64,000 bases of DNA from NCBI GenBank assembly GCA_965113315.1, contig OZ220373.1, one strand, 5' to 3'. Position numbers and translations under genes: made by a program. The notes under the pieces were generated by a model. The model ran no database searches, was not told the DNA's origin, and saw only the letters and a list, made by a program, of their open reading frames with translations. Below, one piece after another: positions 7,801 through 10,445 of this stretch (positions are counted from its first letter, which is position 1; each line of letters starts with the position of its first letter). This stretch comes from Podarcis vaucheri. Taxonomy: Eukaryota.

Positions 7801-10245
7801 CTGCTCCAATATGACTCCACATTGCAAGAGGAGATGTATCTGCTGAAATTCTACCCACTCACAAAAGGCACAGGACCTCAGTTCTTTCTTAAATCTGGAT
7901 ACCTTATTGGAATCCCATTTGAAAAGAGATTATCTCTTTTAGTTTCCCTACCATAGTTTAACAAAGAAAGAGGAAAGGTCTTCGGTGGCAAGGTTTCCAC
8001 CTGGTGAAAAAAGAAGGGTTGGAGATTTCACAAGACCACTGAGTCAGTAAAAGGCTATAGCTGTTTCATTATTGAGCAATACCTCCGTGTCAGAGCTTGG
8101 CTTGCTAAAATCACAGTGGCAGCTTCAAAGCTCTCCTTCCGACATATGGAATTAGGCAAGTGAGAAGAGCGTGAGTGGAAAGGGAAACACAAGTGCGCAT
8201 GCATTCAATTAAAAATTGAATACACATGTTAAGCATTTTGGAAAAAAAGTGCTCTGAAATGGAACACTGGTCCAATTTGGAGCTGTTCTGGTCTCCTGGG
8301 TAAAACATTAAGTTTCCCAAAAGTTTGCGAAAGCATGACTTTTACTACAAAGGCCAGATCAATTCAGTAAAGTGTTCTTTAACGTACATGAAAGATCTGC
8401 TCCCATAGGAATGAGTTACAAAAAGTCTATTTTTTTTTTCCAAATTGTGGCAGAAATTCTGAAGAGCAAATGTCTCCCATCTGGATGTCAGCTTTTGCAC
8501 ATGTAATGGACTGTGTGTACACAAGTGGTTGGGCACATTCTGCATATAGAGAATACATATTTTTTTCCAGGCACAGATTTTTGTGTCTCCTAGTACTCAA
8601 ATTGTTTGTGCCAAATGACTGCCTGTTCACTTCTGGAAGTGTAATCCAATGTTGCAGATCACTTGGGCTGGCATGGTGAGAACAAGAGGCTTGCAAAACA
8701 GACCAAATGGCACATCTAGAACATGGAACGTTACCTCTCTTTGGGCCCATCCACACTTCTGCTTGTTCCATGCTATGCATCTGGATTTTCCCAGACTTTT
8801 TAGCAATTTCTGCCTGGACACTGTTTACAAGCTCTGAATACCGGCTATGTCTGGAAAATTCCAGACATACGGCAACCCTAAGTAACTTTCTGTCCATACA
8901 GATTCATGCATTGCTTCAGTGTCCAAAAAGGCACAACTGGAACAATCTTATCTCAAGTATGGGGTAAATTAGCATAGCCTACAAGCTTTAAAGGACAGTT
9001 TACAGATTTGGTTTAAGTGAGAGCCATGGTAAGTTGACATACTCCTCTCCCTGTAAGCTTGGTCCCCACCGTTAGGTAACTGCCTAACTTGAAAGAGATA
9101 AGGAGCTCAGGTTTTCATAATGACCCCTGCAGTATGCTATCGTGTGTGAATTTGTCTGAAGTTTCTTCTCTTAAAAACTGTGCCTTTATGAGAATGAAAT
9201 CACCTATGGATTTCCCCCCCTAAATCAGTGTCACAAACACAATGCTACAGAATTTAACATTGGCCCCTGTGATATCTAAAAGACTGCACGTTTATTGTGA
9301 CATAAGCTTTCACAGAGCAGAGTCTAATCCACATTTATGACAAGGTATATTTGTTAAACCTTTTAAGATGTCACAGGGATCTTGGTTGTTTTGCCTAGAA
9401 AACAAGTGCCCTTCTGAAATTTGCGACCAAATATAGTACACGCAAACAATACTTAATTGTACTTATGTAATGCTTACAGTATTCATGTGAAGTTTGCCCC
9501 TTTATGTCTGTGCAAACAAAAAGCTACATGCAGAGTTATTTCTCTTTAAGTATCTGGCAAGGCATATGACTGTTAGAAATTCTGTCTTGGTTAAAACAAA
9601 ATTTAGCGCTTGTTAAAGCGTTAAGAGGAATGCTGATGGGGTCAAAGCAAATCTTCTGATAAAGCTGTAAAAATCACCTCCAACACGCCAACGTGACTGA
9701 ATGCTACCATTAGGCTCTCATGCAGTCTGTTTTCCTGCAACCAGCAATTAGCTACGTAACCCTTCAGTGTGGTAACTGAGTTTAGAGCATAGCTTTAATA
9801 ATAGTGGTAGCAGGATGCATGTTCTCTAATTCAACTTGAAGCCATTCTTTTTTCCTCCCTTTAGACCCACAGAAAGTTGCCTGTGAGTATGTTAAACTGC
9901 CCACAGCGAGGTTCCCAGATGTCTTCTAAATACATTTTGGGGGGTAGGTAGTGTGGTAAACCAGAATTCTGAAAATCTCCTGTATGTAACGTACATTTTT
10001 TAACTTCCTTCTTTAGGCTTTGCCTCTGGTTTGTCAAATAATCTTTTTAAGGAACTTCACACACCTCAGGACCAAAATATATACATTGGTGCGGTATGTC
10101 CTACATGCAATTTGGTTTCAAGTGGGAGCTATTAAAATAGGTCCCCCACTGAATTTGCATTTTTGGAAGAAACCAGAACTGAAAGGGTTAGGATGTGTTA
10201 CTGCAGTGGTTATCAGCAGACAGCCATCTAACCTTTGGTACTTAC

Positions 10246-10383
10246 NNNNNNNNNNNNNNNNNNNNNNNNNNNNNNNNNNNNNNNNNNNNNNNNNNNNNNN
10301 NNNNNNNNNNNNNNNNNNNNNNNNNNNNNNNNNNNNNNNNNNNNNNNNNNNNNNNNNNNNNNNNNNNNNNNNNNNNNNNNNNN
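10246..10383 (-). CDS. MEF2C: Inferred MEF2C alpha2 exon hidden in the N-run (sequence not visible)
   Basis: N-run 10246-10417 is followed on the minus strand immediately by gtaagtac. A 138-nt alpha2 exon would leave a 62-nt intron after alpha1. The 10383 boundary is inferred from the known exon size. Confidence 0.75.
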
Positions 10384-10445
10384 NNNNNNNNNNNNNNNNN
10401 NNNNNNNNNNNNNNNNNAAAATGAAAGGGAGTTCAGAGTACTTAC

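Follow-up and report, generated by a model that had tools for sequence, protein, structure and literature searches.

What prevents the alternative exons alpha1 and alpha2 of MEF2C from being joined in one transcript in the lizard Podarcis vaucheri, where the place expected for alpha2 is written as Ns? We analyzed this question in a 64-kb window, that is, the whole stretch of DNA studied (contig OZ220373.1 of assembly GCA_965113315.1). Mutually exclusive splicing of alpha1 and alpha2 in MEF2A, MEF2C, and MEF2D, with alpha2 as the muscle form, is established for mammals as well as for zebrafish mef2cb. The exon pair is already known, and the human MEF2C pair is found in the mutually exclusive exon (MXE) tables of Hatje 2017. 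The switch from alpha1 to alpha2 turns MEF2 factors from repressor-bound to activating in differentiating muscle, and rhabdomyosarcoma, heart failure, and myotonic dystrophy are conditions in which it is disturbed (further background in PMC4064114, PMC5852603, PMC6948164, and PMC8373072). Regulation of the exon choice has already been studied; for MEF2, the literature searched yielded no statement on what forbids double inclusion.

All alpha-pair features of the window are on the minus strand, and their coordinates are collected in Table 1. The original prediction had named the gene as MEF2C and the visible 144-nt exon as alpha1. The sequence supports both identifications; MADS/MEF2 exons lie upstream, and the alpha1 peptide is that of human MEF2C, since comparison by eye with the 144-nt human MXE of this gene (Hatje 2017 Dataset EV4) showed identity at all 48 residues. 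The same peptide shares 28 identities each with the alpha1 peptides of the MEF2A-like and MEF2D-like paralogs, indicating that it is of the MEF2C type. The alpha1 exon is located ~27 kb beyond the MADS/MEF2 exon, its 48 codons contain no stop, and its acceptor ends with CAG. Phase 0 was observed at every visible MEF2C junction, and the next constitutive exon, also of phase 0, lies 12,788 nt past the 10245 donor and beyond the window (G000:C31:35089457). The likeness to the vertebrate MEF2C 3alpha1/3alpha2 pair (also present in MEF2A and MEF2D) consists of the position after the MADS/MEF2 domain and the order alpha1-alpha2. Furthermore, the lengths of the human MEF2C MXE pair (144 plus 138 nt, the partner encoding 46 aa; Hatje 2017) agree with those of the lizard locus, where the alpha2 length is a predicted one. 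No difference from the vertebrate MEF2C pair was found, and muscle-restricted use would follow by analogy with the mammalian and zebrafish data.

Table 1. Features of the MEF2C alpha exon region in the window and of the two paralogous exon pairs
Feature	Position	Strand	Details	Basis
MEF2C first coding exon	56963..57016	-	MADS box start, 18 codons	translation
MADS/MEF2-domain exon	37670..37873	-	204 nt, phase 0 end	translation; PF00319 E 3e-21
Exon alpha1	10446..10589	-	144 nt, 48 aa, phase 0 both ends	PF12347 E 9.6e-11; human MEF2C peptide identity
alpha1 5' splice site	10438..10445	-	GTAAGTAC	motif scan
Weaker branch-point candidate	10431..10438	-	ctctgaac, U-n-A core only, A at +13	motif check
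Best visible branch-point candidate	10421..10425	-	TTCAT, A at 10422, intron +24, -39 if 62-nt intron	sole yUnAy among 28 visible nt
Intervening intron	10384..10445	-	62 nt, 3' end inferred, first 28 nt visible	200-nt donor spacing minus 138; match coordinates
N run, window copy	10246..10417	.	172 nt	base reading of window
Likely exon alpha2	10246..10383	-	138 nt, 46 codons, ends extrapolated	own-genome match 10380-10252; human alpha2 138 nt
alpha2 5' splice site	10238..10245	-	GTAAGTAC	motif scan
TGCATG (Rbfox-type motif)	10104..10109	-	+137 after alpha2 donor	motif scan
TGCATG	9719-9724	-	+522 after alpha2 donor	motif scan
TGCATG	9527-9532	-	+714 after alpha2 donor	motif scan
MEF2A-like pair (L001, C36)			alpha1 132 nt, intron 64 nt, alpha2 138 nt; donors 202 nt apart	own-genome search + readable sequence
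MEF2D-like pair (L002, C38)			alpha1 138 nt, intron 145 nt, alpha2 135 nt	own-genome search + readable sequence
MEF2D-like alpha1-alpha2 intron	G000:C38:18083979-18084123	-	145 nt	

The run of Ns had been described as starting 28 nt after the alpha1 donor and ending at a second donor. Base reading bore this out, as the Ns begin 28 nt past the alpha1 donor and stop exactly at the second GTAAGTAC donor. Among the 11 GTAAGT sites on the minus strand of the window, two read GTAAGTAC, at 10445 and 10245, which are 200 nt apart; scanning of the plus strand of the window for GTAAGTAC gave no copy. GTAAGT is rare in the window, with 21 copies in 64 kb when both strands are counted (0.00016 per position), so its occurrence as a donor right at the edge of the Ns is not due to chance. 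The Ns might be read as a real gap in the assembly, one that would keep the isoform out of an annotation, and the window copy indeed has N at 10246-10417. However, a six-frame search of the species' own genome with the alpha1 peptide as query gave a match with 51% identity over 43 codons within the run, which requires actual bases. The run is thus not an assembly gap, a reading that we regard as scarcely credible, and there is no support for the claim that the isoform would be missed when this assembly is annotated. Both the Ns and their neat boundary stem from the window copy and have no biological meaning. N runs in such windows may cover genuine exons and are not to be taken as assembly gaps. 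A second N run of 164 nt (35580-35743) was also observed in the intron ~1.9 kb downstream of the MADS exon, with no obvious splice site there.

The own-genome search gave six matches from seven candidates, and these six formed three tandem pairs, one member of which is at 10380-10252 of the window. This match (E 4.1e-6) covers query residues 2-46 over 129 nt and is stop-free, supporting the prediction of an alpha-like frame under the Ns; its identity to alpha1 equals that of the MEF2A-like alpha2. When the match is extended by one codon on its 5' side and by two on its 3' side, alpha2 has a predicted extent of 10383-10246, the acceptor AG being extrapolated. The predicted combination of a 138-nt alpha2 and a 62-nt intron agrees with the match coordinates, although its exact ends, and with them the intron length, are extrapolated from the match ends and the donor. 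Approximately 34 intron bases and the alpha2 acceptor of MEF2C would lie under the Ns. The hidden frame is almost certainly alpha2. A silent or decayed duplicate, whose donor at 10245 would be unused in Podarcis vaucheri, is very improbable given the stop-free match of expected length and spacing, the consensus donor at the expected position, the intact alpha2 exons in both paralogs, and the retention of the exon pair in mammals and zebrafish mef2cb.

Next, we consider where the intron between the two exons could be branched; all branch points here are motif-predicted candidates. The 28 intron bases visible between the alpha1 donor and the Ns agree with those given in the original prediction and include ctctgaac and tccctttcatttt. 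The former had been proposed as the branch point, but it carries the U-n-A core only, and TTCAT at +24 fits better as the lone yUnAy match in these bases; ctctgaac was therefore not favored. TTCAT resembles CTTCAT at +36 of the MEF2D-like intron. Branch points are usually located at -18 to -40 of the acceptor. In a 62-nt intron, the branch point would thus fall at +23 to +45; if this length is correct, its distance from the alpha1 donor is necessarily <50 nt.

Exons that exclude each other by steric interference form a standard class of MXEs, to which exons 2/3 of alpha-tropomyosin reportedly belong, and this mechanism is a reasonable and plausible one for the exclusion in MEF2C. The predicted 62-nt spacer would place any branch point below 50 nt from the alpha1 donor, and U1 at the alpha1 donor and U2 at the alpha2 branch site would not co-assemble across the short intron. 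In each transcript, the MADS exon would then be spliced to either alpha1 or alpha2, and the included exon to the one that follows. A steric threshold of <50 nt is in print in PMC5740500 (Hatje 2017) and PMC7969005 (Kralovicova 2021). The steric case is also supported by the paralogs, which repeat the tandem with a short intron or a 5'-proximal branch candidate. We consider steric interference, with somewhat more confidence than doubt, to be the likeliest lock against alpha1-alpha2 joining; for splicing in Podarcis vaucheri itself, this stands as a prediction. If it is true, small insertions in the MEF2C intron would yield an in-frame double-alpha protein.

Several published observations caution against this reading. 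In PMC5740500, the steric class makes up 57 of 629 human MXE clusters (9%), which counts against assuming a steric block, and reads joining the paired exons are known for 91 of the 122 annotated human MXEs, which counts against strict exclusion. Moreover, 15 of 22 candidate conserved human introns of ≤65 nt (43-65) were confirmed and 9 were shown to be spliced by RT-PCR (PMC4463651), and the 56-nt HNRNPH1 intron is described as being spliced with the aid of SPF45 at a donor-to-branch-site distance of 27 nt (10.1101/784868). Since human ultra-short introns do splice, short spacing alone is insufficient proof of a block. The human ultra-short introns (≤65 nt; HNRNPH1 intron 7, SPF45/RBM17-dependent) belong to the same length class as the MEF2C and MEF2A-like introns (a predicted 62 nt and 64 nt); they are excised, whereas the MEF2C alpha1-alpha2 intron would presumably not be removed in one piece.

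Two other classes of enforcement were rejected. Both MEF2C donors contain GTAAGT and are of the U2 type, which speaks against U2/U12 incompatibility. Exclusion enforced by frameshift and NMD does not agree with exon lengths of 144/138 (the latter inferred), 132/138, and 138/135. The length of each of the six alpha exons is divisible by three, and the visible junctions are of phase 0; double inclusion would therefore stay in frame, and decay cannot filter it. A related explanation holds that exclusion occurs after splicing, with double or intron-retaining transcripts being destroyed, or through an RNA hairpin that hides a splice site. The intervening introns (a predicted 62 nt, 64 nt, and 145 nt) are indeed not divisible by three, so retention would break the reading frame or meet a stop, as seen in the MEF2A-like alpha1-alpha2 read-through, which shows a stop codon. 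However, a clean alpha1 plus alpha2 product (144+138 nt) would be in frame and escape decay, and the visible 3' end of alpha1 with the 28 intron bases folds weakly (-7.6 kcal/mol, a value without shuffle control). Exclusion of this kind is accordingly improbable.

The paralogs, which were named by their resemblance to the human sequences in Dataset EV4 of Hatje 2017, allow the steric reading to be compared among the three genes. In the 64-nt MEF2A-like intron, yUnAy matches were found at +30, +38, +47, +51, and +56, and in the MEF2D-like intron at +36 and +82. Three of these candidates, the last two of the MEF2A-like intron and the second of the MEF2D-like intron, exceed the ~50-nt threshold and count against a steric lock. 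In the MEF2D-like intron, pyrimidines make up 85% of the 40 nt that follow +36, and the 122 nt before the acceptor are free of AG; none of the 4528 AG gaps in the window is as long as this run. Nevertheless, shuffling of the intron at constant composition produced a run of this length in 417 of 5000 cases, so the AG-free tract gives no independent support beyond pyrimidine richness. One steric lock common to MEF2A, MEF2C, and MEF2D, in which the donor-to-branch distance and not the intron length is conserved, can be put forward only tentatively: the MEF2C/MEF2A spacer would be 62-64 nt, and the MEF2D-like one would be stretched to 145 nt with the branch point at +36 behind the 122-nt AG-free tract. 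A short alpha1-alpha2 spacer is already in print for the MEF2 family, since the methods of PMC12592725 give 49 bp for the mouse Mef2d intron, in contrast to 145 nt for the MEF2D-like intron here. The stretched intron is a natural test of donor-to-branch spacing and a mildly fresh lead. As for the donors, the MEF2A-like alpha1 donor is GTAAGTAC too; the alpha2 donors of both paralogs are GTGAGTA, and that of MEF2C is GTAAGTAC. The 20 sequencing runs listed for the MEF2A-like alpha region included none of RNA, a result that speaks neither for nor against transcription.

We also analyzed how the choice between the exons may be made. As shown in Table 1, three TGCATG motifs follow the alpha2 donor of MEF2C, and three per 800 nt were reached by 12 of 612 overlapping windows. 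No TGCATG was found in the 800 nt scanned upstream of alpha1. In the paralogs, TGCATG occurs at +36 and +133 after the MEF2A-like alpha2 donor and at +581 after the MEF2D-like one. According to PMC5840707, Rbfox acts on Mef2d alpha2 via downstream UGCAUG. By analogy, and in agreement with published descriptions of Mef2d and cardiac MEF2, exon choice by Rbfox is likely at this locus; in muscle, Rbfox proteins bound to the TGCATG copies that follow alpha2 would decide the choice, as reported for mammalian MEF2 genes. It may be argued that coordinated regulators (Rbfox, PTB, MBNL, and SR proteins) also account for the exclusion, the short intron being a duplication relic or a helper. The TGCATG cluster downstream of alpha2, the published control of MEF2 alpha splicing by Rbfox, MBNL, and SRPK3, the spliceability of ultra-short introns, and the length tolerated in the MEF2D-like intron as compared with mouse are consistent with this. 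However, regulators explain the exon choice and less so the absence of double inclusion where both isoforms coexist. Such coexistence has been described, with alpha2 at ~70% for Mef2d in adult mouse muscle and with zebrafish mef2cb isoforms at comparable levels in adult muscle. Furthermore, the spacing is short, or a 5'-proximal branch candidate is kept, in all three genes. Exclusion by regulators is thus rather unlikely, and steric interference is retained as the preferred lock.

Comparison with OGDH exons 4a/4b, a member of the steric MXE class, indicates a shared predicted branch point <50 nt from the upstream donor, the lizard branch points being motif candidates. The OGDH branch points were mapped at +25 to +41 (PMC7969005). 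In OGDH, the branch points are distant and the intron is longer, whereas in MEF2C and the MEF2A-like gene the same geometry would come from the extreme shortness of the intron; of the three lizard genes, the MEF2D-like one alone resembles OGDH in its distant-branch-point layout. A full-text literature search, which covered few subscription papers, gave no paper tying a steric block to MEF2; the 57-case list of Hatje 2017 was outside this search and may include MEF2. Searching for MEF2 gave no hits in the one supplement file of PMC7969005 or in the main texts of PMC4463651 and PMC5740500, as far as these sources were accessible.

Finally, five other long frames of the window were compared with Pfam, and none of the five matched. 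On the minus strand, a 408-codon open frame at 62777-64000 runs past the window end upstream of the first MEF2C coding exon; it is rich in E, S, and G and is probably repeat-derived. On the plus strand, two overlapping long frames at 40712-41540 contain a Cys/His cluster, and we take them to resemble the 3' end of ORF2 from a retrotransposon of the L1 type. The short plus-strand frames at 52610-52828 and 21533-21781 presumably resemble the C-termini of CR1-type retroelements.
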